64,000 nucleotides of DNA. It comes from an uncultured candidate division Zixibacteria bacterium (GTDB lineage Bacteria; Zixibacteria; MSB-5A5; UBA10806). Both the position numbers and the translations under genes were made by a program. The notes beneath the pieces are model-generated. The model was not told where the DNA came from and did no database searches. It saw only the letters and a program-made list of their open reading frames with translations. The stretch is taken from NCBI GenBank assembly GCA_963801605.1, contig CAWDFP010000006.1, forward strand, positions 768,879 to 832,878. The letters are read 5' to 3'. Shown piece after piece: positions 3,907 through 30,868 of this stretch. Each line of letters begins with the position of its first letter. Within the stretch, counting starts at the first letter, position 1.

Positions 3907-3936
3907 TTGACTAAAATCTGTGTTGTATGTTAATAT
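3907..3936 (+). promoter_or_regulatory. Candidate sigma70-type promoter of the cytochrome cluster
   Basis: TTGACT (3907-3912), then TG-T-TAATAT (3928-3936), an extended -10 with an 18-nt spacer. It lies about 110 nt upstream of the first gene (GTG 4049). Confidence 0.35.
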
Positions 3937-4048
3937 AGAGGCATTAAGGGAACCTGGTGATTGGTTCTACTTTATGATTTGCGTCATATTTCCCTTGACG
4001 GAGCTGATAATGATGTTTAGTATAGTTATCAAATATTTGGAGGCGATT

Positions 4049-4510
4049 GTGAAGGTATTCACATCAGCTAAATTTCCTTTACTTCTTGCTCTTCTTACTG
4101 CGCTTCTGACCTTATCATGCGAAACCGAGGTTAAGGAGTTAACTATCAGGGTAACAAGTCGTATGTACTCTAATTTCGAAGAAGAGCATAAGGTCAAGAT
4201 GTACGAAAAATTTCAGATATCCGATACTGATCTTGAGGCCGTGGCGGTTGAATTCTATCCTGATTTCGATCTCGATACCCTGACGTTTAAGGCTTATTCC
4301 AAATCGGATACGTTAAATAATCCTGCCGTCAAGATTCTGATCATCAAAGGAAATGAGAAAAAAGAGGAAGCCTGGGCGTTTTTGCCGGGGCTGGTTCCGC
4401 ATTTCTCACCTCGTTCTTTTATTGGTTTTGAACTGATGGATTACAAAACTGGCAAGAAATATATAAAGCCGCTAAAACCCAGTCCTGAAAAAGGGAAGGA
4501 AAATGAATAA
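4049..4510 (+). CDS. Lipoprotein of unknown function, first gene of the cytochrome cluster
   Basis: GGAGG at 4039-4043, 5 nt before an in-frame GTG at 4049. N-terminus VKVFTSAKFPLLLALLTALLTLSC has a signal peptide plus a lipobox-like LSC. The track start at 3920 lies inside the putative promoter. The stop overlaps the next gene's start (ATGAATAA). Confidence 0.6.
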   Translation: MKVFTSAKFPLLLALLTALLTLSCETEVKELTIRVTSRMYSNFEEEHKVKMYEKFQISDTDLEAVAVEFYPDFDLDTLTFKAYSKSDTLNNPAVKILIIKGNEKKEEAWAFLPGLVPHFSPRSFIGFELMDYKTGKKYIKPLKPSPEKGKENE

Positions 4511-7500
4511 AAGGCTACTAATCTGCATTGCGCTTCTATTTTGTTTTGGATCATCCTCCCTTTACGCGAAGCAAAAGGAATGTTACGATTGCCATCAAAA
4601 GGCAAAAAAAACCTTCGATTCGTATAAATATTCGCACGAACCTGTCAAAAGCAAAGATTGTGCGGCCTGTCATGATTCGCATGGATTTTCGCAAAAGCTT
4701 GTTCTGAAGGCATACGATAACAGCATTTGCACCAAATGCCACAAGGAATTTGCGGCGGGCTATCCTCCCAGCACGGCAACTTATGTTCATCAGCCTATGA
4801 AAGATCGCGTTTGTTGGTCTTGTCATGAGCCTCACGGCAGTAATCTTCCATCGCTGGTGCGGGTGGTAAATGACACTTTGGTTTGCTTTATATGCCATGA
4901 CGACGTAGGCAATCTTCAAAAAAAGACAGTGGTACATGAGCCATTCGCAAAAAATCAATGTTCGGCCTGCCACAGTGCACATGACAGTCAAGTCGCAGGG
5001 CTTCTAAATAAAAATCAAAAGGAGCTATGCGCCGGATGTCACAGCTTAACCGATAAAGATTATTTGGCTAAACACTCAGTTACGGGTATCGATAAAATCG
5101 ATTGTGTTACTTGTCACAATCCTCATGCCTCCGACAAACCAGGCCTGATCGATCCACTGGCACATGCTCCGATGGTAGAGGGTAGTTGCGAAAGTTGCCA
5201 TAGTAATTTGGCCGCGGGAGATACCACAATTTCGACCACGCCCGGCGAACTATGTGTTACCTGCCATGATGATATTGGCAAGAAAATGGCCATGGCAACG
5301 CCTCATCCGCCGGCGGCGGGCGGAGAATGTCTAACCTGTCATTCGGCTCATAAGGGTAAAGAAAAATCGTTATTAGTATCCAAGCCCGGCGAACTATGCC
5401 TGGGATGTCATACCGAGTTCGCCGACACGTTAAAACTCGAAGGTGTCCATACTGCATTAAGAAATGGCGACTGCAATCTTTGTCATGATTCTCACGGTTC
5501 TCCCAATAAAAGCCTGGTTAAGGATACATCGGATAAACTCTGTCTCGATTGCCATACCGCCCTCAGGGATTCGATGTCTGTTGCAAAGACTCCTCATCCT
5601 GCCGTGGAGACCAAGGGATGTCTCGGTTGCCATCAACCGCATTATTCCAAAAAGATGCCCCTTTTGGTTGATGACGAGAAGCTGATTTGCTTACAATGCC
5701 ATGACAATCTTAAAGAAGAGAGCAAGGCCGGAACGGTTCATATTCCGTTTATGTCGGGGCAATGCGGAGCCTGCCATAATCCGCATGGTTCATCCCAGCC
5801 TAATATGTTTCGGTCAAGCGTACCGGCCGTTTGCGGGCGGTGCCACAATGACGTTATCCAGACTCTCTCTTTGCCGTCAACACACCCGCCTGCCAAAGAG
5901 GGTGAATGCCTTTCATGCCACAAACCGCACTCATCAGATTTTGCCAGGCTTTTAAAGGCAAATGAAAGTCAAAGCTGTGCCGAGTGCCATGGCGATCTGG
6001 ATGGTAAGCTCGCCGTAAAGAATCTTCATACGCCTGTTAAGAATGGCCAATGTACAGCTTGCCATAATCCTCATGGCGCCAAAGAGGCAAAGCTTCTGCC
6101 TGCAAGCGGGAAAGATCTTTGTTTATCATGTCATAAGGATAAAGCGGAAGAGCTGAAAAAAGCAGTGGTGCACCAGCCGGTCAAAGACGGGGAGTGTACC
6201 ACCTGTCATTTAGCGCATGGATCAAATGAGCGTAATAATCTTATTAAACCTGTCGCCGAGCTCTGTCAGGGTTGCCATGATCCCAGTATCGATAAAATTA
6301 AAACAGCCCACGGCGGATATGTTGTCCGAGGTTCCAACTGCGTTACCTGCCATAATCCTCATGCCTCCGATCAACCGAAACTCGTTAATAAAGTTCAACA
6401 TGCACCGTTTGCGGAAAAAAGCTGCGATTCGTGCCATAAAGGTTTAGGCGAGGGCGGCAAGGTACAGTTAGTGGCTGAAGGCGACGCTTTATGCGCTCAA
6501 TGCCACGATGAAGTCGGCAAAATTATGGGGCAGCCGAATATTCACACGCCGATTAAAATGGGCCAGGGATGTATAAGCTGTCATGATCCGCATGCCTCGC
6601 GAAACGAGAAGATGCTTATTGATAAGGTCCCGACGCTCTGCTACAATTGCCACAGCGATTTACAAACGAAATTCGAATCCGATAAAGCCCACTCGCCTGT
6701 TAAAGATGGCAACTGTTTAGCCTGCCATGAAAAACACAGTGGTCCAAACAAGGGACTTCTGATTACCAAGAGCACACAACTCTGTTATAGCTGCCACACA
6801 AAAGAAAAAGAAAAGTTTACTAAAGAGGTAGCTCACAAGCCGGTGGCCGAGGGAAATTGTTTCCAGTGTCACGATGCTCATTCTACCGATAACAATTTTA
6901 TGTTAGTAAAGCCTGAAAGCAAGCTCTGCGTAACCTGTCATTCACTGACCACGCCGGCGTTTCAGCAAGCTCATCATAATTTCCCGATGGAGACCGCCGA
7001 ATGCGCCAAGTGCCATGATCCTCATTCAACTCCGAAAGGATCGGTCGCGCTGCTTTATCCTGATCAGCATAGTCCTTTTAAGATTCGAAACTGTAATGCC
7101 TGCCATGTATCTAACAAGAGTTTCGCCACGATAAAGAGCGGTAAAGAGCTTTGCCTACAATGTCACACCAAGTCGGATGCCCTCTTTGCCAAGAAAAATG
7201 TGCACAAGGCGGTTTCGATGCCGGGCGAATGTGTCAACTGCCATTCGCCGCATACAGGATTTTCCGCAAATATCCTGTCAAAGCCGGCGGGGGATGTCTG
7301 TTTTAATTGTCACAAAAAGGCGGAATTCGAGGGTAAATTCAAACACAAACCGGCTACCGAGAACTGCTCCATTTGTCATGAAGTGCATTCATCGGATAAC
7401 GCCAGCCTTTTAAATGGTGATGATGAGATAAAGCTCTGTCTTAAGTGCCATAACGCCGATAAAACGCACATGCATCCCATGGGCAAGGATTATAAGGATC

Positions 7501-7619
7501 CGCGTAACGGGGAAAGGTTAGTCTGTACAAGTTGCCATTCGCCGCATTCGAGTAATTTTGAAAATATCCTGATGGCCGATAAACAGAGGGAGCTTTGTGT
7601 GGCCTGCCATGCTCTGTAA
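4503..7619 (+). CDS. Giant multihaem c-type cytochrome, 42 CXXCH motifs (doubled-CXXCH / c7-polymer-like)
   Basis: Signal peptide MNKRLLICIALLFCFGSSSLYA. I count 42 CXXCH in 1038 aa, about one per 25 aa. They alternate regularly between LCxxCH(D/T/S) and (E/D/N/Q)CxxCHxPH(G/S/A) units. Confidence 0.95.
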   Translation: MNKRLLICIALLFCFGSSSLYAKQKECYDCHQKAKKTFDSYKYSHEPVKSKDCAACHDSHGFSQKLVLKAYDNSICTKCHKEFAAGYPPSTATYVHQPMKDRVCWSCHEPHGSNLPSLVRVVNDTLVCFICHDDVGNLQKKTVVHEPFAKNQCSACHSAHDSQVAGLLNKNQKELCAGCHSLTDKDYLAKHSVTGIDKIDCVTCHNPHASDKPGLIDPLAHAPMVEGSCESCHSNLAAGDTTISTTPGELCVTCHDDIGKKMAMATPHPPAAGGECLTCHSAHKGKEKSLLVSKPGELCLGCHTEFADTLKLEGVHTALRNGDCNLCHDSHGSPNKSLVKDTSDKLCLDCHTALRDSMSVAKTPHPAVETKGCLGCHQPHYSKKMPLLVDDEKLICLQCHDNLKEESKAGTVHIPFMSGQCGACHNPHGSSQPNMFRSSVPAVCGRCHNDVIQTLSLPSTHPPAKEGECLSCHKPHSSDFARLLKANESQSCAECHGDLDGKLAVKNLHTPVKNGQCTACHNPHGAKEAKLLPASGKDLCLSCHKDKAEELKKAVVHQPVKDGECTTCHLAHGSNERNNLIKPVAELCQGCHDPSIDKIKTAHGGYVVRGSNCVTCHNPHASDQPKLVNKVQHAPFAEKSCDSCHKGLGEGGKVQLVAEGDALCAQCHDEVGKIMGQPNIHTPIKMGQGCISCHDPHASRNEKMLIDKVPTLCYNCHSDLQTKFESDKAHSPVKDGNCLACHEKHSGPNKGLLITKSTQLCYSCHTKEKEKFTKEVAHKPVAEGNCFQCHDAHSTDNNFMLVKPESKLCVTCHSLTTPAFQQAHHNFPMETAECAKCHDPHSTPKGSVALLYPDQHSPFKIRNCNACHVSNKSFATIKSGKELCLQCHTKSDALFAKKNVHKAVSMPGECVNCHSPHTGFSANILSKPAGDVCFNCHKKAEFEGKFKHKPATENCSICHEVHSSDNASLLNGDDEIKLCLKCHNADKTHMHPMGKDYKDPRNGERLVCTSCHSPHSSNFENILMADKQRELCVACHAL

Positions 7620-7625
7620 ACGCTA

Positions 7626-8153
7626 ATGCCCAATAGACGCCATCAAATCTTCGTAAGAGGAGGAGACCACCGCGGGCTGCTGGTGGGATCGATTATCCTG
7701 ATTCTTGTCCTGGTAGTAGTGGCATCAGGCTTGTTTTATATTTTAGCGAACAGAAATTTGGAACAGGCCACTTACCGGGCACATTTCGAGACTTTGCGGA
7801 ACACAATGCAACTGCTTCTTCCCTGGCTTCTGATAGTAAATATAATCGCGCTGATTATAGTGATAATTCTGGCTCTGTTTTTCACTCACAAGATCGCCGG
7901 ACCGGCATACCATCTAATTGTTGATCTCAAAAAGGTTAAGGATGGGGATCTAACGGTGAGAACTGCATTTCGTAAAGGTGACCGCCTCAAGGAGGTAGCA
8001 TCTGCAATGTCTGAAACGACCGAGAATCTGCGTTTAATCGTTGCGGATATTAAAAATGATGTTGCCAATATTTCGGAAGTTTGCGGAGACGAGAAAACCG
8101 TTAAGGAGAAACTCGAAAATCTCAATAGGACTTTGGGCAAATTAAAAACCTGA
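7626..8153 (+). CDS. Two-TM membrane protein with a HAMP domain and short coiled coil, no output domain
   Basis: TM1 LLVGSIILILVLVVVASGLFYIL and TM2 LLPWLLIVNIIALIIVIILALFF, followed by a HAMP-like segment THKIAGPAYHLIVDLKKVKDGDLTVRTAFRKGDRLKEVASAMSETTENL. Its stop overlaps the next start (TGATG). Confidence 0.65.
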   Translation: MPNRRHQIFVRGGDHRGLLVGSIILILVLVVVASGLFYILANRNLEQATYRAHFETLRNTMQLLLPWLLIVNIIALIIVIILALFFTHKIAGPAYHLIVDLKKVKDGDLTVRTAFRKGDRLKEVASAMSETTENLRLIVADIKNDVANISEVCGDEKTVKEKLENLNRTLGKLKT

Positions 8154-8708
8154 TGTGGCTGGTATTATTAGCCGTTTTGATGGCGGTAAATGAAAATTCA
8201 ATTTCGCCGAATATTATGGCGGAGAATATTATCGGCCATACGGGGACGGTATTTCGGGAAAACGCCGGTTTGAAATCGGATAGCTGTACCATCTGTCACA
8301 ATGACGGGGGATTTGATTTGAGCGCGACCACCAACCAACTCTGTTACCACTGCCATGACGATGTCGAATCCAAATCACTAAAGAGGTTCAAGCATACGGA
8401 CGTTGTTAACCCCCAATATCCCGAGCGTAAGTTGCGAGGGATGCCATAAGCTTCACAAAGCAGGCGCGAGACCGTTACTGACTCAAAACGAAATGGAGCT
8501 TTGCCAGGGCTGCCATCCGGAAACAAAGCAATACCTATCTCATCCGGTTGTAACCGGCTTACAGGGACAGACGATTACCGGGAGCGATGGGCGAGTTATT
8601 ACCTGTGCATCACATTGTCATGATGTTCACGGCACGGACAATAAATATTTCTGCAAATTGGAGCCGGGGCGAGAATTGTGTATTTCATGCCATAAGGATT
8701 TTGAGTAA
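8153..8708 (+). CDS. Small multihaem cytochrome (5 CXXCH + 1 CX3CH); frame broken at a C5 run (fragments 8153-8449 and 8403-8708)
   Basis: Fragment 1 carries CTICH and CYHCH. Fragment 2 carries CEGCH, CQGCH, CASHCH and CISCH. Removing one C from CCCCC (8410-8414) gives a continuous ...KHTDVVNPNIPSVSCEGCHKLH... The C-terminus parallels that of the 42-haem protein. Confidence 0.8.
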
Positions 8709-9605: not shown

Positions 9606-10478
9606 GTGCATCCGATATTGGCGGCGATAATACTCAGTGCAAACATTGGATCGTCCAGGATTGAATTTGCAGCCGTTACTCCGGGGACGATCGATGGGCT
9701 TCCTATGAATAATGCCCAATGCCTGGCAGTCAACCCGCGCACTGAGGAATTTTTGGTGGCTGACGCCCTAAACGATCGCATCCTGGTTTTTGATACCACC
9801 GGTCTGCCCGTATTTGATTTTCAGCTTGGAGCGAATCGTCATAATCCCTTTGGGATTGTAGTCGATTCATCCGATCAGATAATTGTGGGGGCGATGGATT
9901 CTCCGGTGCTTTGGATATACGATTATAGCGGCGAGTTCGTAGATAATATCGAACTTCCCGATAGCGTATATCCGGGTAGGCTTTTAGCCTTACCAGGGGG
10001 CAATCTATTGGTTATAAACCGTTCAGGTCGGGGTGCGCTGCAAATTGATCACAGCGGGAATATCGTTTCGAAATATGAGGTATCCCGGGAAGAGTGTAAA
10101 CCTTCAGGCATATGTCTCGATGCAAAAGGAAATATCATTATAGTTTCCTCGGCCGGGCCGGTTATCACTGCATTTGATCATTATGGGAAAGCGATATTTT
10201 CCTTTGGGGAACATGGCCGGGAGCCAAAAGATTTTTCCCGGCCGACAGCCGCCGCGATTGATGACCACGGCAACTATTGGATAGTTGACTCATTTAGGCA
10301 TGAGTTAAAGCTTTTTGATTCCGATCATAATTTCAAGGAGGTTTTTGGACAACGCGGCACTAATAAAGGAGAGTTTTATTTCCCGGCGGATATAAAGATA
10401 ACTTCAAGCGGTAAAATGGGGATATTGGATAAGGGGTCAGGAAGGCTTCAGATATTTAGATTGAATTATGACAAATAA
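9606..10478 (+). CDS. NHL-repeat beta-propeller protein (copy 2)
   Basis: GTG start 3 nt after the upstream stop. Blades include AQCLAVNPRTEEFLVADALNDRILVFD, PFGIVVDSSDQIIVGAMDSPVLWIYD, PSGICLDAKGNIIIVSSAGPVITAFD, PTAAAIDDHGNYWIVDSFRHELKLFD, PADIKITSSGKMGILDKGSGRLQIF. Confidence 0.8.
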   Translation: MHPILAAIILSANIGSSRIEFAAVTPGTIDGLPMNNAQCLAVNPRTEEFLVADALNDRILVFDTTGLPVFDFQLGANRHNPFGIVVDSSDQIIVGAMDSPVLWIYDYSGEFVDNIELPDSVYPGRLLALPGGNLLVINRSGRGALQIDHSGNIVSKYEVSREECKPSGICLDAKGNIIIVSSAGPVITAFDHYGKAIFSFGEHGREPKDFSRPTAAAIDDHGNYWIVDSFRHELKLFDSDHNFKEVFGQRGTNKGEFYFPADIKITSSGKMGILDKGSGRLQIFRLNYDK

Positions 10479-11451
10479 GCTAATAAAAATCGGACTTACA
10501 GTTCTATTGCTTCAGTTGCCGGCTATTGGAGGAGAATACCATCAGCAATCGGATGTTATTTGCAGCGATTGCCATACAACTCACTATAGCGAGCATGGCA
10601 CGCTGCCTGAAAAGGCCGAACCGGGCGGGCCCTTCACCGAGCTTCTCCTGGTTGGGTCAATTAATAAGCTGTGTCTATCTTGTCACGATGGCACCGACCC
10701 GGCGGCTCCCGATGTGCTTTTCCCCGTGGCGATGTATAACGGATCAGGCTCCGAATACTCGGGGGCAGGCTTTTTTTCCAATGCGGACGGCGTGATTTCC
10801 GTTAATGGCCACTCTCTCGGTGTTCCGCTTGAGATTCCCGATTCTAATCCGGCGCGGACGGTGATGCTTTCCTGCATCAGTTGTCATGACGCGCATGGCA
10901 CATCCAATTACCGAAATCTGGTTTTAAATCCGGATAGTTTGGGTATCGACATAAATCTTTCAATAGGCGCCGATGTTTTTGAAAATGTTCATCCTCAGAA
11001 TCCGCCCGAAAGAAATGCGTCTATCCAGGCGTATAAATCGGGCAACAGCGGATATGTCGATAAAATTACTTTATGGTGTACAGACTGTCATAACGCTCTG
11101 TCTGTGGATAATCCCGGAAATCCGCCGGCTCATTTTATGCGTCATCCGTCCGGAGTGAGTATGGATGGCGTTTCCTATCATCTGAGTCCGGCGCATTGGG
11201 TAAGCGGAGAAGGGGACGGGTTTGGATTAGCCACCGGGGATGGCCTCGAAGGAATCCCCAGGGTACGTTTCCAGTCTGAAGGGGCGACTGATTATAACAC
11301 TGCGATTACGCCATCAAGAACGAATCAGGTGTTTTGTTATTCATGTCATTTTGCTCATGGCGGCCCGTATGAGGCTTCATTAGTATGGCCATATAAAACC
11401 AGCGGTGCAGCGGATATGTACTCGGGGTGTCAGCAATGTCATTACAAATAA
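10468..11451 (+). CDS. Secreted hexahaem c-type cytochrome (paralog family A, member 1)
   Basis: Signal peptide ...LLLQLPAIGG, then EYHQQSDVICSDCHTTHYSEHG. Six CXXCH (CSDCH, CLSCH, CISCH, CTDCH, CYSCH, CQQCH) in 327 aa. 11-nt overlap with the upstream NHL gene. Confidence 0.9.
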   Translation: MTNKLIKIGLTVLLLQLPAIGGEYHQQSDVICSDCHTTHYSEHGTLPEKAEPGGPFTELLLVGSINKLCLSCHDGTDPAAPDVLFPVAMYNGSGSEYSGAGFFSNADGVISVNGHSLGVPLEIPDSNPARTVMLSCISCHDAHGTSNYRNLVLNPDSLGIDINLSIGADVFENVHPQNPPERNASIQAYKSGNSGYVDKITLWCTDCHNALSVDNPGNPPAHFMRHPSGVSMDGVSYHLSPAHWVSGEGDGFGLATGDGLEGIPRVRFQSEGATDYNTAITPSRTNQVFCYSCHFAHGGPYEASLVWPYKTSGAADMYSGCQQCHYK

Positions 11452-13005
11452 AAAAACGATCCGAAATATATTTGGCGACGGCGCTCACCTTAGCGGTCAT
11501 TGTGATACTGGCCGGTTTAGTGTATGCCGATTCCGGCGCATATAAGACCACCAAACACGCAGACCCACAAATCGGAGTGAACCGCGATTCCAATCTTCCT
11601 CGGGGCAATTGTAGTCAATGCCATTTGGAACATAACACCGATAATCCCAACGATTATGCTTTATTCGCCCCGCCGGATAACTCACTATGTCTTTCGTCCG
11701 GTTGCCATGAGTACGAATATCAATGGCCTCCGGGAAACTATTACTGGAGCTATCCCGGCAATGTGCCCGACTGGTATAACTCGGCCCACGGATCATCGAC
11801 AGCGCTATTCACACCGGGCGGTAACCGCGAAGTGCGGCTTTGCGTGCAATGTCATAATCCGCACGGCAAAACCGATTCAACGTATGGCGTTTACCCCTCG
11901 GAGACAAGTTTCCTCGAAGAAGGCGGCTGCTATTCTAACGGCGGATTAATAGGGCAGGGATGCCATGGGAATAATTCAAGTAACAGGCCGATCGGGGCTG
12001 CAGATATTTATTCGGAAATTCTTAAATCATCGCGGCATAATGTCGAAGCGACCACCAAGGAGCATTCCTCTGATTGGATAGCGGTGTATCCTTACGGCAG
12101 AGAATCGCGAACGCCTGTCTCAGGTTTTTTCGCTGGTGATAGGCGGCATGTCGAGTGTGTTGATTGTCACAATCCGCACAAGGCGATTACGGGAACGCAT
12201 CAGCCGGCGACAGGAGAAATCGGCGGTCCGCTTTTGGGCAATTGGGGAGTGGAACCCGGTAGCAGCGCACCCTGGACCGTCCCAATGAGCTTTAATGCTG
12301 TTGATTTTTCCTCGATATCTACGGCCAGAGAGTATCAGCTCTGCCTGAAATGTCATAGTTATTTTGCCTATGGATATAGTCCTCCCACGGGATACACCGA
12401 TATCGCCCGCGAAATAAATCCGGCTAATGCTTCATTTCATCCAATTGAGGATACAATTCGAACCAACTCCTACACATCGCCGTCCCCAAATAACAATTTT
12501 ACCGAAACGATGGAAACACCCTGGGATGATGGCCGTCACAACCAGATGACATGTTCCGATTGCCATGGTTCGGAAAACGGTGCTGATCCCAAAGGCCCGC
12601 ATGGTTCAAACCAGCCCTATATCCTCATGGCTTCGCCGGCCGCAGGCGAAACCGCTTTATGTATCAAGTGCCATAAAGCATCGGTTTATGCGCCGCCGTT
12701 TGATCCGGGCGCACAGGAGACAGGCAGTAGATTCGATTTGCAAACGACGGGAAACGATAAGGCAAATCACTACTATCATGTAACAATCATGAGACTTGGC
12801 TGCCGGCAATGTCACGCGGCACGGCAGACGGTCCCCCCCGGCAATCCCTGAACAGCGGACCCCTTATCCGATTCAGGTGGGTTCGGCTCACGGAACTAAT
12901 TTGTTTGCCGGTCTACTAAATGGTACGAATATTAATTCGTATTCTCCGGGAAGCTGCGCTCCCACTTGCCATGATCCGGTCACTTATAATGCAGGGCCGG
13001 AATAA
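11427..13005 (+). CDS. Multihaem cytochrome (7 CXXCH plus CX4CH, CX10CH and CX3CH variants); frame broken at a C7 run (fragments 11427-12851 and 12796-13005)
   Basis: N-terminal signal/anchor IYLATALTLAVIVILAGLVYA. Motifs CSQCH, CVQCH, CVDCH, CLKCH, CSDCH, CIKCH, CRQCH, plus CLSSGCH (11688-11708), C-x10-CH (11928-11966) and CAPTCH (12955-12972). Deleting one C of 12833-12839 gives ...CRQCHAARQTVPPAIPEQRTPYPIQVGSAHGTN... ATG 11436 is an alternative start. Confidence 0.8.
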
Positions 13006-14624
13006 TGCCGAGAAGATTTGTGTTTGTCATTATTATGCTGGCATCATTAAAAGCTTCTGCCTCCGATTTGAGAGGAAATCTTAATCTCAGCTATCAAGGC
13101 ACTGATGGAGGGGCGGAAAATCCCGCGTCTTCAGTGTTCAGCCAGGTTGCCAATCTTTATATTACCGACCGTATCTTTTACGGCAATGATTTAACTCTGG
13201 GAGCATTTATTTTTCACACCAAAACCTCAGGAGCGGCCAGAGGCGATTTGCGCGTTAGATATTCTGCGAATCTTTTAGGCAATAGATATTCACTTTATTC
13301 GTCGTATTCACCATACACCCTGTACCGCCCCGGAGGGGGTGCACTCAAGGTACGAGTATTTCAAGGATCTCTTACTTACCGTCCAAAATTGCTCCCGGAT
13401 ATTATGGGCAGTTACGCCTCTACTCGTCAGTATACAACCGACAAACCGCGATCCCAGGACGGGCTAAATTATTCCTGGAATTTGGGGACTCAGTTTTCCA
13501 AATCGTTTGGATCGTTCAGCGGCGTCTATCAAAGGCAGCAAACAAAAAACGATCAGGCTCTCGTTCAAACCAAACAGATAACACGAACTATTAATTTGGG
13601 ATATGATATTTCAAAACAGTATCCGGCCAATGTTAATTGGTCGGCGGGATATAATTATATAGGTACCACTACAGAGAACCCGGGTATTCAAAAGGATAAT
13701 AGCCGAACGCATATCGGCTCTTTTCAGGTTGGACGGAATTTTGGCAAATGGTTTTCAATGTCAGGGGCGACGTCTGGCCGAATTTTCGATCTTGAGCATT
13801 TGTCCAGAACAACCAGGATCGAAGATTTTCTTGCCAATGGCTCGGCCAGCATGAAGCTTCGCGAGAACATCACATTTGTACTTCTTCGAGGCTATAATAT
13901 CAGTCAGAACAAAGAAGATTCTACCACGAAAATTATAAACGATTATATAAATCTGGGGGGTGTCTGGGGATTTTCGGTTGGACGAGGCGCCGATACGCGG
14001 CTGGCGTTGTCGAGATCGTATTATTATGCTTCAATCCAGGGGCGCAATATCGTTGATAATGGCACCCTGATTTTTGATATGAATCTTTATCGCCGCACCA
14101 CCGCGACGGTCAATCTGGGAGTTGCTCGTAATCAGAAGATTCTTTCCGGCTTTGGGAGATATCAAATGACGCGTAATGTCGATATTATTTCGAGGCCGCT
14201 GAGGTCAATATCGCTAAACATGAATTACCAGTCATCCGAAACCTCAAACTCGATCAATTTCAAGAACAGCAACAGCGACAATTTTTCTGTGAATCTAACA
14301 CATATTTTGAAATATTATTTTAATTATGCGTTAACTTATACGCGGTCTGCCTTTCATTCGCAAGGGATGAATAATTTCTCGACATTATCGGTGGCATTTA
14401 ATTACCGATTGAGCAATACGCTTTCGTTACTCGGAACGTATAGCAGGCGAGATCTGGGCGAATTATCCACAGCACTTGAAAGCGGTATCGATCAAACTGT
14501 GGGAGGCAGAATTTCCTGGATTACCTCACCAAGAAGTAATTTGACTTTGAATTATTCCGTTTCCAATATTAATACCACACGTCAAACACAAGGTTTTGGC
14601 GGTTATTTTGTGACGAGCTTTTGA
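13005..14624 (+). CDS. Predicted outer-membrane beta-barrel protein (candidate porin of the conduit)
   Basis: Signal peptide MPRRFVFVIIMLASLKASA. 539 aa with no Cys and no haem motif. Amphipathic strand-like runs rich in Y/G/N/S/T/R (LNLSYQG, LTLGAFIFHT, LRVRYSANLLG, LTLNYSVSN). C-terminus GGYFVTSF ends in Phe. ATG overlaps the upstream TAA (TAATG). Confidence 0.6.
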   Translation: MPRRFVFVIIMLASLKASASDLRGNLNLSYQGTDGGAENPASSVFSQVANLYITDRIFYGNDLTLGAFIFHTKTSGAARGDLRVRYSANLLGNRYSLYSSYSPYTLYRPGGGALKVRVFQGSLTYRPKLLPDIMGSYASTRQYTTDKPRSQDGLNYSWNLGTQFSKSFGSFSGVYQRQQTKNDQALVQTKQITRTINLGYDISKQYPANVNWSAGYNYIGTTTENPGIQKDNSRTHIGSFQVGRNFGKWFSMSGATSGRIFDLEHLSRTTRIEDFLANGSASMKLRENITFVLLRGYNISQNKEDSTTKIINDYINLGGVWGFSVGRGADTRLALSRSYYYASIQGRNIVDNGTLIFDMNLYRRTTATVNLGVARNQKILSGFGRYQMTRNVDIISRPLRSISLNMNYQSSETSNSINFKNSNSDNFSVNLTHILKYYFNYALTYTRSAFHSQGMNNFSTLSVAFNYRLSNTLSLLGTYSRRDLGELSTALESGIDQTVGGRISWITSPRSNLTLNYSVSNINTTRQTQGFGGYFVTSF

Positions 14625-14638
14625 TCTCTGGAGGATAG

Positions 14639-15223
14639 ATGAAAAATAAATGCCTTATTTTGGGAATTACATTGTTATTGGCAGTCCTCGGATGCGGCGG
14701 TCCCCGGACCTTTCTCAACGGCAACACAGATTGGACATTTTATAAACAGCTTGGCGTCTTGCCATTTGTTAATCTAACAACCGATCGTTTTGCGGGCGAA
14801 AAGGTGCAGTCGGCCTTTATTACCGAACTTTTTCTTTCGGAACGCTTTCAGGTTATGGAACCAGGAGAGTTTAACTCCAGAGTAGCCCAGGAACTTAAAA
14901 CCTCGGCATCGCAGCCCGTCCAGGAACTTTCCCTTGACCAGATCAAAACGATCGGTGAAAAAACCGGAGTTCAGGGGGTAATCGAGGGTGTTGTCAGAGA
15001 ATATGGTACTACCCGAGTGGGGCAAACCGATTACCCGGTCATTAGCTTAAGTATCAGAATGATCGATGTTCCTACCGGAACAGTAATCTGGATGACATCT
15101 TTCAGCAAAAAAGGCGGCCCTAATTTGCCGATCGTATCGATTGGAGAGACGCATACGCTAAGCGAACTGACGCAGAAGATCTGCCATGACATTGTTTCTG
15201 ATTTTGTAAGCCGTGCCTTTTAA
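14639..15223 (+). CDS. Non-haem lipoprotein, paralog 1 (TolB-N/CsgG/LpoB-like 'VLPF-N' type; family uncertain)
   Basis: MKNKCLILGITLLLAVLGC lipobox. Core motifs LGVLPFVNLTTDRFAGEKVQSAFITEL, VMEPGEF, GVIEGVVREYG, ISLSIRMIDVPTGTVIWMTSFSKKG. No Cys apart from the lipobox region and one other residue, and no CXXCH. Confidence 0.6.
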   Translation: MKNKCLILGITLLLAVLGCGGPRTFLNGNTDWTFYKQLGVLPFVNLTTDRFAGEKVQSAFITELFLSERFQVMEPGEFNSRVAQELKTSASQPVQELSLDQIKTIGEKTGVQGVIEGVVREYGTTRVGQTDYPVISLSIRMIDVPTGTVIWMTSFSKKGGPNLPIVSIGETHTLSELTQKICHDIVSDFVSRAF

Positions 15224-15234
15224 GGAGAATTCGG

Positions 15235-15810
15235 ATGAAGCTTTACTCGAAAACAAACTGGATAATAATTTTATCGTTGGCGTTTTTGTCATGCGGTCCA
15301 AAGCCAAGCGTTTACCTGCAGGATAACAATGGCGCCAAAGCGTCCAAGACGCTCGCCATTTTGCCATTCGATAATTACTCCGGAAAAGAGGATGCCGGCA
15401 AGCAAGTGGCCAATGCCTTTTTGGTGGAACTTCTCAAGAATCCATCGTTTCATGTCGTAGAGCCGGGAGAAGTCGATAGGGTGATGAGGGAGGAACGGAT
15501 TCGCTCATCGAGCCAGATTGATCTGAATGCGGCTCGGCTATTTAAAGATAAGCTTTCGTCGGATTATATTTTAATTGGCGCGGTCAATGAGTTTGATTAT
15601 CTCAAAGACGGCGATCGTGATGTTCCCCTGGTGGGATTTACGGTAAGGTTGCTCGATACCTCAAATGGACAGATTGTTTGGGCGGCCAACTACAGCAGGC
15701 GGGGGGACGATCACGAGCTTGTTTTCGGCTGGGGTTTGGTAAGCTCGCTTTCGGAACTAACTCAAATCAGCGTTCGCGATGCAATTTCCCGTATAAAGAT
15801 TGCACAGTAA
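15235..15810 (+). CDS. Non-haem lipoprotein, paralog 2 (same family as 14639-15223)
   Basis: IILSLAFLSC lipobox. Aligns block by block with the upstream gene: LAILPFDNYSGKEDAGKQVANAFLVEL, VVEPGEV, ILIGAVNEFDY, VGFTVRLLDTSNGQIVWAANYSRRG, LSELTQ. Confidence 0.6.
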   Translation: MKLYSKTNWIIILSLAFLSCGPKPSVYLQDNNGAKASKTLAILPFDNYSGKEDAGKQVANAFLVELLKNPSFHVVEPGEVDRVMREERIRSSSQIDLNAARLFKDKLSSDYILIGAVNEFDYLKDGDRDVPLVGFTVRLLDTSNGQIVWAANYSRRGDDHELVFGWGLVSSLSELTQISVRDAISRIKIAQ

Positions 15811-15886: not shown

Positions 15887-15914
15887 TTGACATAGTAATT
15901 GTTACTAATATATT
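15887..15914 (+). promoter_or_regulatory. Candidate sigma70-type internal promoter upstream of the third NHL gene
   Basis: TTGACA (15887-15892), a 16-nt spacer, then TATATT (15909-14). It sits in the only sizeable gap (186 nt) inside the cluster. Confidence 0.45.
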
Positions 15915-15996: not shown

Positions 15997-16945
15997 ATGA
16001 GAAGATACTTTATCCCGCTGATTTTCCTACTTGTCAACCTGGCTGTCTCGGCCGAACCGTTGGTCGAGCCCAATGTCAGTCTTGTCAGTGTGGTTAAAGG
16101 TTATTCGGATCGTAAAGCATTTGGAAATCCCACAGGAATATTCCTCGATCCCATAAAAAACGAAATCTATGTCGCCGACGCCGGTAATCATCAGATTGGG
16201 ATATTCGACAAGCGCGGCACCAGCTTGTGGACATTCAAGCACTGGGTAACGGATAGCCGGGAGGAAGGCGCCAGGATATCTGGGCGATCCTCATTCAATA
16301 GTGGTTACCAAAGACGGCGACATCATCGTCAGCGACAACAAAGCTGATTATATCGATGTTTTTGATTATCGCGGCTCACTTCAATTAAAAATATCTCCTG
16401 AAGATTATCCTGAGGCAGGCCCATTCAGAGGCGCCATTCTGGCGCTTGATAAATCAGGCAATCTTTATATCGGCACGATTCTTGAAAAATCGGAAATCCT
16501 GGTGCTCGATTCCGATTATCAGCTTATCAAGCGATTCGGGAAAAAAGGTGAGGAGCCGCAGGATTTCCAGAATATCTCGGGAATCTGGGTGAACGGTGAT
16601 GGCAACATTCTGGTCACCGATGCCCTGGGCACTCCAATTTTGAAGAAATTCAATTCCAACGGCGAATATCTCGGTGGTTTTGGAGAGCATAGTATCGAGA
16701 AAAACGATTTTTCGTTTCCAAGCGGAGTGGTGATGACCTCAAGCGGGCGGATCTGGATCGTCGATCAACTTCGACAGGTAGTCAAATGCGTGAACGATTC
16801 GGGAGCTTTCATCACTATGATCGGCGGCCTGGGATATGCTCCCGGCGATATGTGCTATCCCTCCGGAGCCGCTTCCGACGGAGATTCGACGCTGGTAGTA
16901 GTCGAGAAAAACGGTAATAGATTTCAACAATTTATCATCAGGTAA
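15997..16945 (+). CDS. Secreted NHL-repeat beta-propeller (copy 3); frame broken once (fragments 15997-16347 and 16301-16945)
   Basis: Signal peptide MRRYFIPLIFLLVNLAVSA. Blades PTGIFLDPIKNEIYVADAGNHQIGIFD, then after a +1 shift near 16250-16290 (second frame open from 16250: ...APGYLGDPHSIVVTKDGDIIVSDNKADYIDVFD), ISGIWVNGDGNILVTDALGTPILKKF, PSGVVMTSSGRIWIVDQLRQ. Confidence 0.75.
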
Positions 16946-17059: not shown

Positions 17060-18109
17060 ATGAAGAAAATTTTCGCACTAACTCTGGCAATGGTATTCGT
17101 TTTCGCGATGACGGCATTCGCCGGTGAATACCACATGGGAAGCTCATTGAGCTGCTACCAGTGCCATTCAATGCACTATAGCCAACAGCATATGTTTGGC
17201 TATGCTCACGAGGATAGTATTCCGTTCCTCGGCCCCGATGGACCATACAACAAGCTGCTTCGTTCGGATGTCAACGATCTTTGCCTTTCCTGCCATGACG
17301 GGGGAGATGTCATAGATGTTTACGGCGTATCCGAAGTCAACGCGACAGTTAACCGCGAGGGCGGTTTCCTTAGCAGAGTCGGCGACGGCAATGAGAATCA
17401 CGGCCATACGCTCGGAGCCACCAGCACTGCTCCCGGTAGCCTTCCAGCTTGGAGCCCGGATCAGACAGAGGGTCTTACCTGCGTCAATTGCCATAGCGCA
17501 CACGGCAGCGCCGGTTCAGGGAATCCGGATCAGGTTAAGGGTCAGTGGAGAAACCTGACCAGGAATCCTGGCAACGGAACCAACAGATACGTCAACTACG
17601 AAAAATCCAGCGAGCCCGTAAACACGACCCGCGACATCAAGTGGAGATCCTCCAGCGCCCACGACGCCGGCGCTTATGAAACCGACAATGTCGATTTTTA
17701 TGAGCCCGTGTCATCTGAATCCCGTTACGGCGCCTGGTGCCAGGGATGCCATACCAATTTCCATGGTAATTCCTCAAGCGACAATATGGCTAATGCGGAC
17801 GGATGGATCCGTCACCCGACAGCCGACGTTAATCTAGGGACCTCTGGCGCAACCGATTTTGCATCCCATGCTTATCGTCCGCAAGTGATGAGCCCGACAG
17901 GCAACTGGGGCACCCAGGGCGATTCCACCTGGACTCCGCCGACCGATCTTACCCCGACTTGCGTTACTTGCCATAAAGGCCACGGCAACGGTAATGCGTT
18001 CGGTCTCGTTTATATGGATGGCCGCCATCCGCGTACAGAAAACGGCGATGCGGTATCTACCAAGATTACTGCTACCTGCAAAATCTGTCACAGCCAGGGC
18101 GGTTATTAA
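17060..18109 (+). CDS. Secreted hexahaem c-type cytochrome (paralog family A, member 2)
   Basis: Signal peptide MKKIFALTLAMVFVFAMTAFA, then GEYHMGSSLSCYQCHSMHYSQQH. Six CXXCH (CYQCH, CLSCH, CVNCH, CQGCH, CVTCH, CKICH) in 349 aa. RBS GAGAGG. Followed by a strong terminator. Confidence 0.9.
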   Translation: MKKIFALTLAMVFVFAMTAFAGEYHMGSSLSCYQCHSMHYSQQHMFGYAHEDSIPFLGPDGPYNKLLRSDVNDLCLSCHDGGDVIDVYGVSEVNATVNREGGFLSRVGDGNENHGHTLGATSTAPGSLPAWSPDQTEGLTCVNCHSAHGSAGSGNPDQVKGQWRNLTRNPGNGTNRYVNYEKSSEPVNTTRDIKWRSSSAHDAGAYETDNVDFYEPVSSESRYGAWCQGCHTNFHGNSSSDNMANADGWIRHPTADVNLGTSGATDFASHAYRPQVMSPTGNWGTQGDSTWTPPTDLTPTCVTCHKGHGNGNAFGLVYMDGRHPRTENGDAVSTKITATCKICHSQGGY

Positions 18110-18121
18110 TAGTCCGCTTGA

Positions 18122-18155
18122 AGGAGGGTGTCTCGCACACCCTCCTTTTTCTTTT
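18122..18155 (+). terminator. Rho-independent terminator after the hexahaem cytochrome
   Basis: AGGAGGGTG (18122-18130), loop TCTCGCA, CACCCTCCT (18138-18146), followed by TTTTCTTTT. Confidence 0.8.
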
Positions 18156-18179: not shown

Positions 18180-19298
18180 ATGATCAAACACACAATTGTA
18201 TTTCTTTTTGCGATGATTTCTCTTTCTACCGCCGGAACTATTTTACAGAATGACGGTTTCCCGCACAAACCCGGTTCCGGTTATCAACCCGGCGCAATAC
18301 TCGATACGCCGCCCTTTACGCCAGGTTATCACAATGGCAACGACATGGTTTGCTCAGATTGCCATATTATGCATGCCTCTATGCAGCATGATTATGGTAC
18401 CCCTGATTCTTATACCTATCCTTATAACGTTGAGCCTCCCGCAAATCATCTTCTTAAGGCTGCGAACGCCTTAACGCTGTGTCTGTCCTGTCACAACGAT
18501 AAGGTTGGTATTCCCGATGTTGTCGGCGCCGACGTCAATGGAGGGAGTGATCGTGCGGCGGGACAGCTTGGCGAAGTTGGCGAAATCAACAACAACGGGC
18601 ATAATATTGCTCCTGATCCGGGGGACCTCTGCAATCGATGCCATTTTGGAGGGGAGTTTCACACCGCTTCTGTAGAGTGTATCGATTGTCATGCTCCACA
18701 TGGTACCCGGTATTATCGCAATTTACAGTGGGCGTCATGGCCGGGTCATCAGCCACCTATTGTCGCTTTTGTCAGGCCTGGTTCGCAGGGACTTGACAAA
18801 TATCAAACTGCCAATGTTCGATACGGCGCTCCCGGTTATGGACGTGGTCAGGCGACCTGGAGAGAGGTAACTAATATCTGCATTGATTGTCATCATACCC
18901 TGGTTGACGCCTCGCCCAACGGTGGACGTTATACCAATCCGGAGCTTGATGATCATTGGAATAGACACCCCGGTACAAATAGCGAAGACGGCGCATATCG
19001 GCCTATTGGCGGTTTACCGGATGATCCCGATGTTTACACCGATCCTCAGAATTGGGTAAGCGGTGAAGGTTCCGAATTTTCTGTTGGACGAGTGCCTTAT
19101 ATCGTAACCGAGGCTCACTCATTTCAACAGGCGGACGTTGTTTCCACCAGTAACGAGGTTTTCTGTCTTTCCTGTCATAGCGCTCACGGCACCGATAAGC
19201 CGTTTGGTTTACGATGGAATCCGACCAATAACTCAACTCCACTGGCTACTGCTGGATGCCGTCAATGCCATAACAATACAGCGAGCAATATTCCATAG
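18180..19298 (+). CDS. Secreted heptahaem c-type cytochrome (paralog family A, member 3)
   Basis: Signal peptide MIKHTIVFLFAMISLSTA. Seven CXXCH (CSDCH, CLSCH, CNRCH, CIDCH x2, CLSCH, CRQCH) in 372 aa. Shares ...GYHNGNDMVCSDCHIMHASMQH and NNNGHNI blocks with the other two family members. Confidence 0.9.
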   Translation: MIKHTIVFLFAMISLSTAGTILQNDGFPHKPGSGYQPGAILDTPPFTPGYHNGNDMVCSDCHIMHASMQHDYGTPDSYTYPYNVEPPANHLLKAANALTLCLSCHNDKVGIPDVVGADVNGGSDRAAGQLGEVGEINNNGHNIAPDPGDLCNRCHFGGEFHTASVECIDCHAPHGTRYYRNLQWASWPGHQPPIVAFVRPGSQGLDKYQTANVRYGAPGYGRGQATWREVTNICIDCHHTLVDASPNGGRYTNPELDDHWNRHPGTNSEDGAYRPIGGLPDDPDVYTDPQNWVSGEGSEFSVGRVPYIVTEAHSFQQADVVSTSNEVFCLSCHSAHGTDKPFGLRWNPTNNSTPLATAGCRQCHNNTASNIP

Positions 19299-19370
19299 AG
19301 GAAATTAGAAGTATTGGAGTAGAGAGAAACTACCCGTAATTCGATTTTAATTAATAAGAAATTTTTGCTT

Positions 19371-19407
19371 AATAAGGTATCCATCCGGGTACCTTATTAT
19401 GTTTTTA
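19371..19407 (+). terminator. Rho-independent terminator closing the cytochrome cluster
   Basis: AATAAGGTATCC (19371-19382), loop ATCC, GGGTACCTTATT (19387-19398) with one mismatch, then ATGTTTTT. Confidence 0.6.
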
Positions 19408-30460: not shown

Positions 30461-30868
30461 GTCTCCTCCCAAGAAAACATCGTTTTTACATTCGAAAAAA
30501 TATTTTAGAATCACATTTTATTTGCGAACATGCTACAAAGAAGTATTATTTCGCTATTGGCTATTTCCCCGTATCCCAAAAGAGCTTGCAGAATAAATAA
30601 TTGCACCAATAATATAATGCCTCGTCTCAGGAAAACAAGCATTTTATGCTGATTTTATTAGCCGCCAAAGGCATGTGAATGTGTATAAGATATTAATTTA
30701 TAAGGCTTTATAAAACGAAAACTGGGCATGGTACAAATGTAGAAACAAAACACCTCGTCTAAAAAAAACCTGATTAGTCTTGGCTTAGTTCAGAGATTTA
30801 ATTTAGAATAGGATATACCCTGTTTCCAGCTTGCAAACGGCGCGATGACGGATCGGCATCGCTTAATA

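Follow-up and report, generated by a model that had tools for sequence, protein, structure and literature searches.

A multi-haem cytochrome gene cluster of Zixibacteria carries the gene for a very large outer-membrane barrel, and the two paralogous lipoproteins encoded next to it, LP1 and LP2, are very probably dedicated subunits or accessory factors of that barrel. On balance we lean towards a reading in which the barrel, LP1 and LP2 constitute one obligate module of an outer-membrane porin-cytochrome conduit, found in Zixibacteria and in uncultured lineages related to them. This suggests that electron conduits across the outer membrane can be built in a way not yet described. A literature search found no published description of such a barrel with a lipoprotein accessory pair, in keeping with the earlier note's suggestion that the pair is new. 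Coordinates are positions within the window, the whole stretch of 64,000 nucleotides that was analysed; the reading frames of the barrel and both lipoproteins lie where they had first been placed.

3920..4510, + strand: small protein, family unknown; lipobox LTLSC inside the ORF (Cys67)
4503..7619, + strand: giant cytochrome, 1038 aa, 42 CXXCH motifs
7626-8153, + strand: membrane protein, 175 aa
8153-8708, + strand: small 5-6-haem cytochrome, split by a frameshift near a C5 run at ~8410
8587/8713-9603 and 9606-10478, + strand: two NHL-repeat beta-propellers (Pfam NHL, 1e-9 and 1e-15)
10468..11451, + strand: six-haem cytochrome with Sec signal, mature N-terminus GEYH
11427..13005, + strand: multi-haem cytochrome coupled to the barrel, with seven CXXCH, one CX4CH and one CX3CH
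13005..14624, + strand: outer-membrane beta-barrel, 539 aa, with Sec signal peptide
14639..15223, + strand: LP1 lipoprotein, 194 aa, lipobox VLGC (Cys19)
15235..15810, + strand: LP2 lipoprotein, 191 aa, lipobox FLSC (Cys20)
15997..16945, + strand: third propeller of NHL repeats, interrupted in the assembly by a frameshift near 16260
17060-18109, + strand: cytochrome, 349 aa, 6 haems
18180-19298, + strand: cytochrome, 372 aa, 7 haems

The linkage of the three proteins is the strongest evidence. LP1 and then LP2 lie directly downstream of the barrel in all 14 informative barrel-anchored loci, a set made up of eight close, Zixibacteria-type loci and six distant subfamilies whose barrels are only 19-27% identical. 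Of 33 metagenome loci anchored instead on LP1, 30 are informative about the upstream side, and all 30 have the barrel there; 30 are informative about the downstream side, and all 30 have LP2. Linkage is thus complete in about 45 loci spanning 44-70% GC, with neither a pair lacking the barrel nor a barrel lacking the pair found among them, which bears out in other genomes the association that the earlier note had proposed. Each lipoprotein has its own single orthologue: the gene next after the barrel matches LP1 best in every case and the one after that LP2, so the duplication must be old and both copies have been kept. Both have been retained, their order unchanged, from a time before the barrel subfamilies split, which suggests that they have distinct roles.

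Gaps of 14 nt before LP1 and 11 nt before LP2 separate the genes of the module. At the other end of the barrel gene, in the junction GAA TAA TG, the A at 13005 serves both as the last base of the cytochrome's TAA and as the first of the barrel's ATG, the overlap that had been described earlier; cytochrome stop and barrel start likewise overlap by 1 or 4 nt in loci L001, L002, L003, L015, L016 and L017. What had been taken for a C-terminal fragment of the cytochrome proved to be the product of a +1 frameshift at a C7 run (12833-12839). Deleting one C restores the frame, and nine related loci have both pieces in a single frame, the gene there being called as 512-520 aa. Because the gene is intact in relatives, and the same kind of split affects at least four further genes of the window (two of them, a C25 peptidase and a PstS-like binding protein, outside the cluster), the split is most likely an assembly error, an indel, rather than biology.

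The wider cluster is conserved in part. The giant cytochrome has exactly 42 CXXCH motifs in every distant locus examined. Homologues of the small protein adjoin it in L012-L017, always beside a 42-haem cytochrome; the small protein, whose true start is probably near 4049, had no match in a Pfam search. Both upstream NHL propellers are kept in related loci and the third is a single frame in relatives, while the 175-aa membrane protein and the small 5-6-haem cytochrome each occur in only some related loci. The coding region of the six-haem cytochrome (to 11451) overlaps the next cytochrome gene (from 11427). Cytochromes of the 349-aa type show 38-43% identity in distant loci, and a strong terminator-like hairpin lies 3' of each of the 349-aa and 372-aa cytochrome genes.

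By sequence, LP1 and LP2 are true paralogues, with 31% identity over 179 aa by BLASTP (E=3e-32). Every motif block listed in the earlier note is present: (V/I)LPFxN, EPGE, IEGVV/LIGAV, (I/V)R(M/L)(I/L)DxxxGxx(I/V)W and LSELTQ. That note's suggestion of a TolB-N, CsgG, LpoB or DUF799 fold also held up. Pfam LpoB and CsgG both score above threshold, at 3e-6 and 1.4e-5 for LP1 and 1.7e-7 and 2.3e-7 for LP2, and a Foldseek search with the AlphaFold2 model of LP2 (pLDDT 83.9) returns GNA1162, PelC, CsgG, LpoB and TolB-N. GNA1162 is the top match (E=3.5e-10); it and PelC both reach a target-normalised TM-score of about 0.75 at 24% identity. Profile searches against the PDB find PelC for LP1 (5t11 at 7e-6, 9h80_C at 7e-5) and for LP2 (6e-9). 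PelC and GNA1162 are the closest solved relatives of both lipoproteins. Some JGI records label homologues CsgG, PelC or TolB-like.

The mature lipoproteins are about 172-176 aa long, with short, conserved N-terminal tethers of about 18 residues. Within the barrel module, LP1 is conserved best (62-77% identity in close loci, 38-52% in distant ones, where the barrel falls to 19-27%), a pattern to be expected of a heavily contacted protein. Where PelC has its D-loop, the part that touches the rim of its barrel, LP1 and LP2 have, like PelC, a beta-hairpin with Gly, an acidic residue and Pro. The PelC hairpin aligns with RVGQxDYP of LP1, whose acidic residue stands one position off PelC Asp119. The LP1 hairpin is conserved as R-V-G-Q-x-D/E-Y/F-P, while that of LP2 varies between subfamilies. 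Hydrophobic loops follow the last strand in each protein, GGPxxP(I/F)(I/F)xxGE in LP1 and GDDxE(L/F)xFxWG in LP2.

The barrel is a new, uncurated outer-membrane family, without sequence match in Pfam, NCBIfam or PDB, and a rare one, with 62 cluster representatives among 1.84 billion. Its AlphaFold2 model (pLDDT 81.6, pTM 0.60) has 28 strands by DSSP, a count of about 28 that depends on this single model, and lacks a plug domain; no extracellular loop exceeds 11 residues. The highest Foldseek TM-scores are to the 26-strand barrels LptD (0.43-0.48) and MtrB (6r2q_B, 0.44). Both of those barrels are filled by a partner protein. Five of the six positions best conserved superfamily-wide (G24, D55, N61, Y95 and P131) lie on the periplasmic rim in strands 1-7, and the sixth, P103, lies off it; outer-membrane proteins generally conserve their periplasmic half better, which weakens the weight of this pattern.

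A barrel of some 28 strands with neither plug nor long loops would, without a partner protein, be an unfilled hole several nanometres wide. By analogy with MtrAB, its most likely occupant would be a multi-haem cytochrome. LP1 and LP2, PelC-fold lipoproteins, would be anchored by their short tethers in the outer membrane's inner leaflet, and the two probably assemble together. Twelve PelC subunits build a collar at the periplasmic rim of their barrel, kept in place by an acidic hairpin loop with flanking Gly and by a Trp at the membrane interface; assembly of the ring requires a PelB helix passing through it (PMC12141448). No equivalent of that helix was identified in this system. The likeliest arrangement would be a PelC-like hetero-oligomeric collar at the periplasmic rim, with the conserved LP1 hairpin docking on the rim, the hydrophobic loops of both proteins lying at the membrane interface, and the collar positioning, retaining and sealing a cytochrome that passes through the barrel. 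We hold the ring or collar geometry itself only tentatively, at somewhat under even chances. The PelC fold does not always make a ring: LpoB is not described as one, and GNA1162 was deposited with two chains.

The earlier note had also proposed that the lipoproteins, which it called haem-free, act in place of lipoprotein cytochromes. The first part stands, in that CXXCH is absent from both LP1 and LP2, and no cytochrome of the cluster has a lipobox. Substitution is doubtful. MtrC and OmcB belong to the membrane's external surface, whereas the PelC ring sits periplasmically, the side that the short tethers also fit; LP1 and LP2 therefore look like an extra part in the periplasm rather than a replacement for a cytochrome at the surface.

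Three other readings were weighed. LptE serves as plug and folding template for 26-strand LptD, and one lipoprotein, or both in turn, might act similarly here, in the lumen or as a template with no external ring. LptD in LptDE complexes is among the barrel's highest TM-scores (0.43-0.48), the mature lipoproteins are near LptE in size, a 28-strand lumen could by our estimate hold one of them, and the barrel lacks an inbuilt plug. The idea comes near to the plug that the earlier note had suggested. We consider this unlikely: LptE appears neither among the best 50 Foldseek matches of LP2 nor among the Pfam matches, the nearest relatives belong to rings or collars, a single plug hardly accounts for two distinct paralogues retained throughout, and a lipoprotein in the lumen would leave scant space for a cytochrome. 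That the two are ordinary activators of peptidoglycan synthases, of the LpoB type, or curli components of the CsgG type, beside the barrel by chance, could draw on their Pfam scores, which exceed the gathering scores, and on the CsgG, PelC or TolB-like names of some homologues. Yet the NCBIfam LpoB equivalog scores only 20-25 bits against a cut-off of 110, the CsgG match ends before the part of the profile expected to hold the membrane-spanning hairpins, the tether is unlike the long linker of LpoB, the neighbourhood contains no curli, pel or PBP genes, and linkage to the barrel is complete across all those loci and their range of GC. Chance proximity is extremely improbable, being effectively refuted by the co-occurrence data.

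The barrel and a PelC-like ring might instead form an export or threading portal, a polymer-type pore such as PelBC provides for the Pel polysaccharide, by which an extracellular cytochrome (candidate cargo being the wire-like protein with 42 haems or the paralogues with six) reaches or crosses the outer membrane, rather than a static MtrAB-type sheath. In its favour, the relatives of the lipoproteins include a collar for exopolysaccharide export, the barrel has an unusually wide and open shape, any surface-exposed cytochrome here would need a route other than lipidation, and the exactly-42-haem cytochrome co-occurs in every locus that extends far enough. Against this, a medium-sized cytochrome translationally coupled to its barrel is what MtrAB and PioAB classically show, the cluster displays neither an energy source nor a secretion ATPase, and there is no sign that any cluster cytochrome polymerises or is extracellular. 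We regard the portal as improbable, and prefer the conduit module.

Among known systems, GNA1162 (DUF799; Neisseria meningitidis, PDB 4HRV) is like LP2 in fold, but its context is unrelated, and the Pfam GNA1162-like match of LP1 and LP2 (13-15 bits) is below the gathering score of 25.9; we know of no function for it. PelB-PelC of Pseudomonas aeruginosa (PDB 9H80, 5T10/5T11, 5T0Z) shares with our system the PelC fold, detectable sequence similarity and short-tether lipoproteins encoded beside an outer-membrane barrel. Pel, however, has a single PelC where there are two paralogues here, PelB has 16 strands plus TPR where our barrel has about 28 and neither TPR nor stalk domain, and the Pel context is polysaccharide synthesis, in contrast to multi-haem cytochromes without pel genes. 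The 12-mer, with its 3.2-nm pore, fits a 16-strand barrel; 28 strands would need another stoichiometry or geometry. LptD-LptE also pairs a very large barrel with a dedicated lipoprotein of about 19 kDa, but the likeness to LptD is architectural only, with neither an OstA/LptD N-terminal domain nor an LptE-family signal here.

NHL and multi-haem cytochrome genes are interleaved, as here, in Desulfovibrio ferrophilus (DFE_0448-0451, DFE_0461-0465) and in the uet cluster of Ca. Tenderia electrophaga. The portions of the sources consulted place a beta-barrel, UetC, in the uet cluster, report D. ferrophilus to be without an apparent porin, and leave PelC-like lipoproteins unmentioned for either, the likeness being by description only (PMC9769857; bioRxiv 10.1101/2022.05.06.490989). 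In MtrAB(C), PioAB and Pcc (OmaB-OmbB-OmcB), a large barrel likewise directly follows, and is translationally coupled to, a multi-haem cytochrome; our barrel model resembles MtrB in structure, and the coupled cytochrome has an MtrC/MtrF-type domain (Pfam domain II/IV) just over threshold, at 32 bits against 30. The barrel nevertheless has no sequence relation to MtrB or PioB and has about 28 strands against 26, and, unlike MtrAB(C) and Pcc, this system has no lipoprotein cytochrome and keeps as its constant companions a haem-free lipoprotein pair, NHL propellers and a 42-haem cytochrome.

All genes of the window between 3.9 and 19.3 kb lie on the same strand and form one cluster, whose components are given below together with two genes outside it.

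Features of the window (coordinates, strand, description)
3920-4510, +, small protein, family unknown, internal lipobox; first gene of the cluster
4503-7619, +, giant cytochrome of 1038 aa with 42 CXXCH motifs
within 7626-8708, +, membrane protein of 175 aa, between the giant and the small cytochrome
within 7626-8708, +, small cytochrome with 5-6 haems, after the 175-aa membrane protein; frameshift near 8410
between the small and the 6-haem cytochrome, +, two NHL beta-propellers
10468-11451, +, 6-haem cytochrome
11427-13005, +, larger cytochrome, coupled to the barrel
13005-14624, +, outer-membrane beta-barrel of 539 aa
14639-15223, +, lipoprotein LP1
15235-15810, +, lipoprotein LP2
after LP2, +, third NHL propeller; frameshift near 16260
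end of the cluster, +, two cytochromes, with 6 haems (349 aa, 17060-18109) and 7 haems (372 aa)
25905-30514, -, C25 peptidase, frameshifted, outside the cluster
46584-47433, PstS-like binding protein, frameshifted, outside the cluster

The barrel begins within the stop codon of the preceding cytochrome, the A of a TAATG junction being common to the TAA and the ATG, and gaps of only 14 nt and 11 nt precede LP1 and LP2; in six related loci, the same stop and start overlap by 1 or 4 nt. LP1 and LP2 are paralogs (31% identity, E = 3e-32), each with a lipobox and neither with a haem motif, so that the arrangement described in the earlier note, a barrel coupled to a cytochrome and followed by twin lipoproteins, is borne out. 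What that note took for a C-terminal fragment of the cytochrome, however, is one side of a split caused by a frameshift in a run of seven C at 12833-12839, most likely an assembly artefact. Dropping one C merges both reading frames, and the related loci have a single frame, called as 512-520 aa, whose stop overlaps the barrel start. At least five genes in the window are split by frameshifts (sites near 8410, 12833-12839, near 16260, 29408-29414 and 46936-47066), two of the five sites being C5 and C7 runs. Because these are scattered over the window, both in the cluster and outside it, they most likely represent indel errors of assembly, not pseudogenes. Pseudogenisation or phase variation was rejected for the three frameshifts in the cluster, since the C25 peptidase and the PstS-like gene elsewhere are split alike.

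Of the close loci, L001, L008 and L009 have the 175-aa membrane protein and the small cytochrome (7626-8708), while L002, L003 and L007 lack them; found in only some close loci, these two are optional parts of the cluster. Promoter and terminator scans returned consensus matches only, from a sigma-70 model that may not fit this phylum. Within the cluster, the sigma-70 consensus is matched best (TTGACA-16-TATATT, 11/12) at 15887-15914, inside the 186-nt gap after LP2, and strong terminator-like hairpins with 12- and 13-bp stems (18120-18148, 19370-19399) lie 3' of the 349-aa and 372-aa cytochrome genes. Together these predicted signals suggest that LP2 is the last gene of one transcription unit. 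Elsewhere, the window encodes a hybrid histidine kinase of 2434 aa (33134-40438, +) in which HisKA, HATPase and receiver domains accompany at least nine PAS domains, two more PAS/HAMP kinases (48912-50672 and 60184-62940), and two very large homologs of C25 (gingipain-type) peptidases (25905-30514 and 51590-56455, both on the minus strand), one of which also has CarboxypepD_reg domains.

The earlier note had asked whether barrel and twin lipoproteins occur together in other genomes. They do so in every informative locus, in both search directions. All barrel-anchored loci with downstream sequence encode LP1 and then LP2: eight close ones (L001-L004 and L006-L009) and six from distant subfamilies (L012-L017) whose barrels are only 19-27% identical to that of the window. 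In these six, the first downstream gene matches LP1 best (38-52% identity) and the second LP2 best (25-39%), both with a lipobox. Conversely, a metagenome scan with an LP1 profile found 33 loci, with a barrel directly upstream in 30 of 30 informative cases and LP2 directly downstream in 30 of 30. In L033 and L036, the ends lie too near to judge. In the subfamily of L042, an N-terminal extension of some 100 aa precedes the conserved part of LP2, and L042 breaks off before that part. Cytochrome, barrel, LP1 and LP2 follow one another in invariant order, and the rest of the window has no second copy of barrel, LP1 or LP2. Because linkage is complete in the forward and the reverse direction, the three genes constitute an obligate, ancient module, and a chance neighborhood of lipoproteins and barrel is excluded. 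Sequence comparison places the duplication that produced LP1 and LP2 before the split of the barrel subfamilies, and indicates much stronger constraint on LP1 than on the barrel.

Searched exhaustively with an HMM, 1.84 billion cluster representatives yielded only 62 barrel-family proteins at E<=1e-3, full-length members being about 510-595 aa and falling into roughly ten subfamilies. A word-indexed protein search with the 25-sequence barrel alignment returned the same 15 proteins again, the distant relatives coming only from the exhaustive search. One entry, P0057, lies on a 2.6-kb contig and thus has no gene context. In a scan of one genome per species, the barrel was found only in the Zixibacteria MAGs RBG_16_53_22, CG_4_9_14_3_um_filter_46_8, MFD05942.bin and UBA10806. 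NCBI labels one distant relative Verrucomicrobiae, while another protein of its 90% cluster bears the label Zixiibacteriota. Since GC content of the module loci ranges from 44% to 70%, several lineages carry the module.

For the lipoproteins, all the motif blocks listed in the earlier note are present, and its guess at the fold (TolB-N, CsgG, LpoB or DUF799 type) was correct. The Pfam models for LpoB (LP1 3e-6, LP2 1.7e-7; 27.7 and 31.6 bits against a threshold of 22.3) and CsgG (1.4e-5 and 2.3e-7) are both passed, with a weak GNA1162-like match. The pair are neither true LpoB nor true CsgG proteins. For the NCBIfam LpoB equivalog TIGR02722, whose cut-off is 110.55 bits, the scores are only 20.4 and 25.5, so the Pfam match reflects shared fold only, and the long disordered linker with which LpoB can span the periplasm contrasts with a tether of about 18 residues in LP1 and LP2. 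Alignment to the CsgG profile is confined to its N-terminal part (positions 30-151 for LP1, 29-102 for LP2, of 210) and stops short of where the membrane-spanning hairpins should lie, and no csg genes are found near the cluster. The GNA1162-like/DUF799 model PF05643 gives 14.7 and 13.1 bits, below its gathering score of 25.9, although GNA1162 (4HRV) is a strong match by fold.

The closest solved relative is PelC, reached in PDB profile searches from both LP2 (5t11 at 6e-9, Pseudomonas aeruginosa PelC 9h80_C at 1e-6) and LP1 (7e-6 and 7e-5, respectively). An AlphaFold2 model of LP2 (pLDDT 83.9) superposes in Foldseek on GNA1162 and PelC with target-normalized TM-scores of about 0.75 at 24% identity, followed by CT253, FlgT, CsgG, LpoB and TolB-N. 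Almost all loci have a lipobox in both LP1 and LP2; the mature proteins are about 172-176 aa, and some 17-20 residues separate the lipidated Cys from the first strand, similar to PelC in the alignment, with a conserved tether in LP1, PRTF(L/I)NxxxDWxFY. LP1 and LP2 are thus haem-free, short-tethered lipoproteins of the PelC fold. Twelve subunits of PelC make up a ring on the periplasmic rim of PelB, a 16-strand barrel, held there by a flexible, Gly-flanked acidic hairpin loop (D119, in G117-L-D119-G120) that touches rim Arg residues, with Trp149 packing against the lipid anchors (PMC12141448). Its D-loop (N-G-L-D-G-E-P) aligns with R-V-G-Q-x-D/E-Y/F-P in LP1, where the acidic residue is off by one position, G128 and P133 never vary and R126 hardly varies, and with K-D-G-D-R-D-V-P in LP2, where the loop differs among subfamilies. 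A few residues past the position aligned with Trp149, both lipoproteins have a conserved hydrophobic loop after the last strand: GGPxxP(I/F)(I/F)xxGE(T/S)HT in LP1, and GDDxE(L/F)xFxWG in LP2, whose close relatives all have F164 and W166. Mature LP1 and LP2 were not consistently opposite in charge, so that a comparison of charges gives no argument for a heterodimer. LP1 also has a lone, nearly invariant cysteine, Cys182 (15182-15184), in its C-terminal helix (QKxC[HKR]); mature LP1 offers it no partner, none was seen in the barrel sequence, and it could be buried or form an intermolecular link. The LP2 of L040 (4507-5373), of a high-GC subfamily, is 288 aa long and has an extra Cys-rich segment of about 100 aa before the PelC-like domain; similar types occur in L043, L047 and L048.

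The barrel has no match in Pfam or NCBIfam. None of 25 family members matches a Pfam model, and a profile built from them finds no convincing Pfam family and no sequence match in the PDB, 6R2Q_B (MtrB) included; kinship by sequence with MtrB, LptD or any Pfam family was therefore rejected. The AlphaFold2 model (pLDDT 81.6, pTM 0.60) is all-beta and plug-less, with 28 strands after the signal peptide, periplasmic turns of 2-7 residues and extracellular loops of at most 11. Its top Foldseek TM-scores are to the 26-strand barrels LptD (0.43-0.48) and MtrB (0.44), both of which are filled by a partner protein. Because a barrel so wide lacks loops to close it, the modeled lumen must, we infer, hold something. 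Of the six positions best conserved throughout the superfamily, five (G24, D55, N61, Y95 and P131) map to the periplasmic rim of strands 1-7, and the sixth, P103, lies higher up in strand 5. This patch may hint at a docking site, weakly so because the periplasmic half of outer-membrane proteins is generally the better conserved.

Wherever contigs reach far enough to be scored, the module has four constant companions. The cytochrome whose stop overlaps the barrel start has 5-7 CXXCH motifs in distant loci and matches Pfam MtrC/MtrF domain II/IV just above threshold. The others are an NHL propeller, a cytochrome with 6 haems (38-43% identity to the 349-aa one of the window), and the giant cytochrome with its small partner, whose gene in the window overlaps the start of the cytochrome gene by 8 nt and encodes an internal lipobox, LTLSC. 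The giant cytochrome has exactly 42 CXXCH motifs in six of six distant loci examined, at only 37-43% identity and about one haem per 25 residues; by our own estimate, it could be long enough to act as a wire across the periplasm. Zixibacteria-type loci have these two genes upstream; in L014-L016 and L049, their place is downstream of LP2. No cytochrome of the window cluster has a lipobox, all N-termini being of plain Sec type, and single-sequence PDB searches found no solved relative for the 349-aa cytochrome or for the L001 ortholog of the barrel-coupled one. The 6-haem paralogs (10468-11451, 17060-18109 and the L012-L017 orthologs) are predicted to begin, once the signal peptide is removed, with G-(D/E)-(Y/W)-H, the first CxxCH coming about 10 residues later. 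Speculatively, a conserved His so near the N-terminus might serve as an inter-subunit haem ligand as in filament-forming cytochromes. In L014 (16532-21599, minus strand), the module adjoins a NapC/NirT-type cytochrome, more multi-haem cytochromes and a Rieske/cytochrome b complex. These neighbors plausibly provide an inner-membrane point of electron entry, and the arrangement resembles the PetAB-linked cluster of Zixibacteria RBG-1 (PMC3903129).

Translational coupling links this very large, open barrel to a cytochrome; by analogy with MtrAB, the barrel would form a sheath for a cytochrome. LP1 and LP2 would lie on the periplasmic face, probably as a hetero-oligomeric collar docked on the conserved rim that holds or seals the threaded cytochrome. 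The linkage data uphold the earlier proposal of an accessory pair: LP1 and LP2 are indeed dedicated to an electron-conduit barrel, as accessories that seem not to have been described before. The further suggestion that the pair stands in for the surface lipoprotein cytochromes of other conduits is doubtful, as PelC, the nearest relative, points to a periplasmic collar instead.

Alternatively, the lipoproteins might act as an LptE-like plug or assembly factor. Size is the only feature in which the barrel resembles LptD, however; searches of Pfam and NCBIfam found neither an OstA/LptD N-terminal domain nor an LptE-family match, and LptE is absent among the best 50 Foldseek matches of LP2. A bolder reading, which we regard as unlikely, carries the PelC kinship further: 28-strand barrel and lipoprotein ring would form a PelBC-like portal that passes a cytochrome "polymer" over the outer membrane, with the ring as gasket and anchor. 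The cargo would be either the 42-haem protein, as a single-chain wire spanning the envelope, or a filament of the 6-haem paralogs with the G(D/E)YH N-terminus. If true, this would explain in a new way how long cytochrome wires pass the outer membrane. On the preferred collar model, PelC-type rings would be a general means by which outer-membrane barrels are fitted with cargo, and the complex a concrete target for structure determination.

Porin-cytochrome conduits serve Gram-negative bacteria in electron exchange with minerals, electrodes and partner cells. In the solved MtrCAB complex, as in the model for Pcc of Geobacter, a barrel is combined with two cytochromes, one periplasmic and the other a lipoprotein. 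The present system differs in three ways: a new and larger barrel family, no lipoprotein cytochrome, and two obligatory haem-free lipoproteins, kin of a polysaccharide-exporter collar. Zixibacteria are abundant in aquifers and the deep subsurface, where iron cycling has been inferred from gene catalogs only. Barrel and lipoproteins would escape FeGenie and other marker sets now in use; possible new markers are the barrel profile and, for LP1, the signature GGPxxPxxxxGExHT.

Mtr-like or Geobacter-like porin-cytochrome genes have been reported from Zixibacteria in general terms only (PMC3903129; FeGenie, PMC7005843; PMC8478452). Recent surveys of new conduits leave accessory lipoproteins unmentioned, and our literature searches found no paper connecting PelC, LpoB or DUF799-type lipoproteins to porin-cytochromes, and nothing relevant for a 42-haem cytochrome. 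NHL propellers beside cytochromes are described for Desulfovibrio ferrophilus, reportedly without an apparent porin (PMC9769857), and for the uet cluster of Ca. Tenderia, there together with a barrel (bioRxiv 10.1101/2022.05.06.490989). The module resembles Mtr and Pcc systems in that a large barrel gene adjoins, and is coupled to, a multi-haem cytochrome gene, but its barrel falls outside the MtrB/PioB sequence family and the window cluster has no outer-face lipoprotein cytochrome of the MtrC or OmcB type. With PelC, LP1 and LP2 share an alpha/beta fold, detectable sequence similarity, a lipoprotein signal and a short tether; whereas the partner of PelC is PelB, a TPR protein with a 16-strand porin encoded in the pelABCDEFG operon, the barrel here has about 28 strands and no TPR, and its neighbors are cytochromes and NHL propellers.
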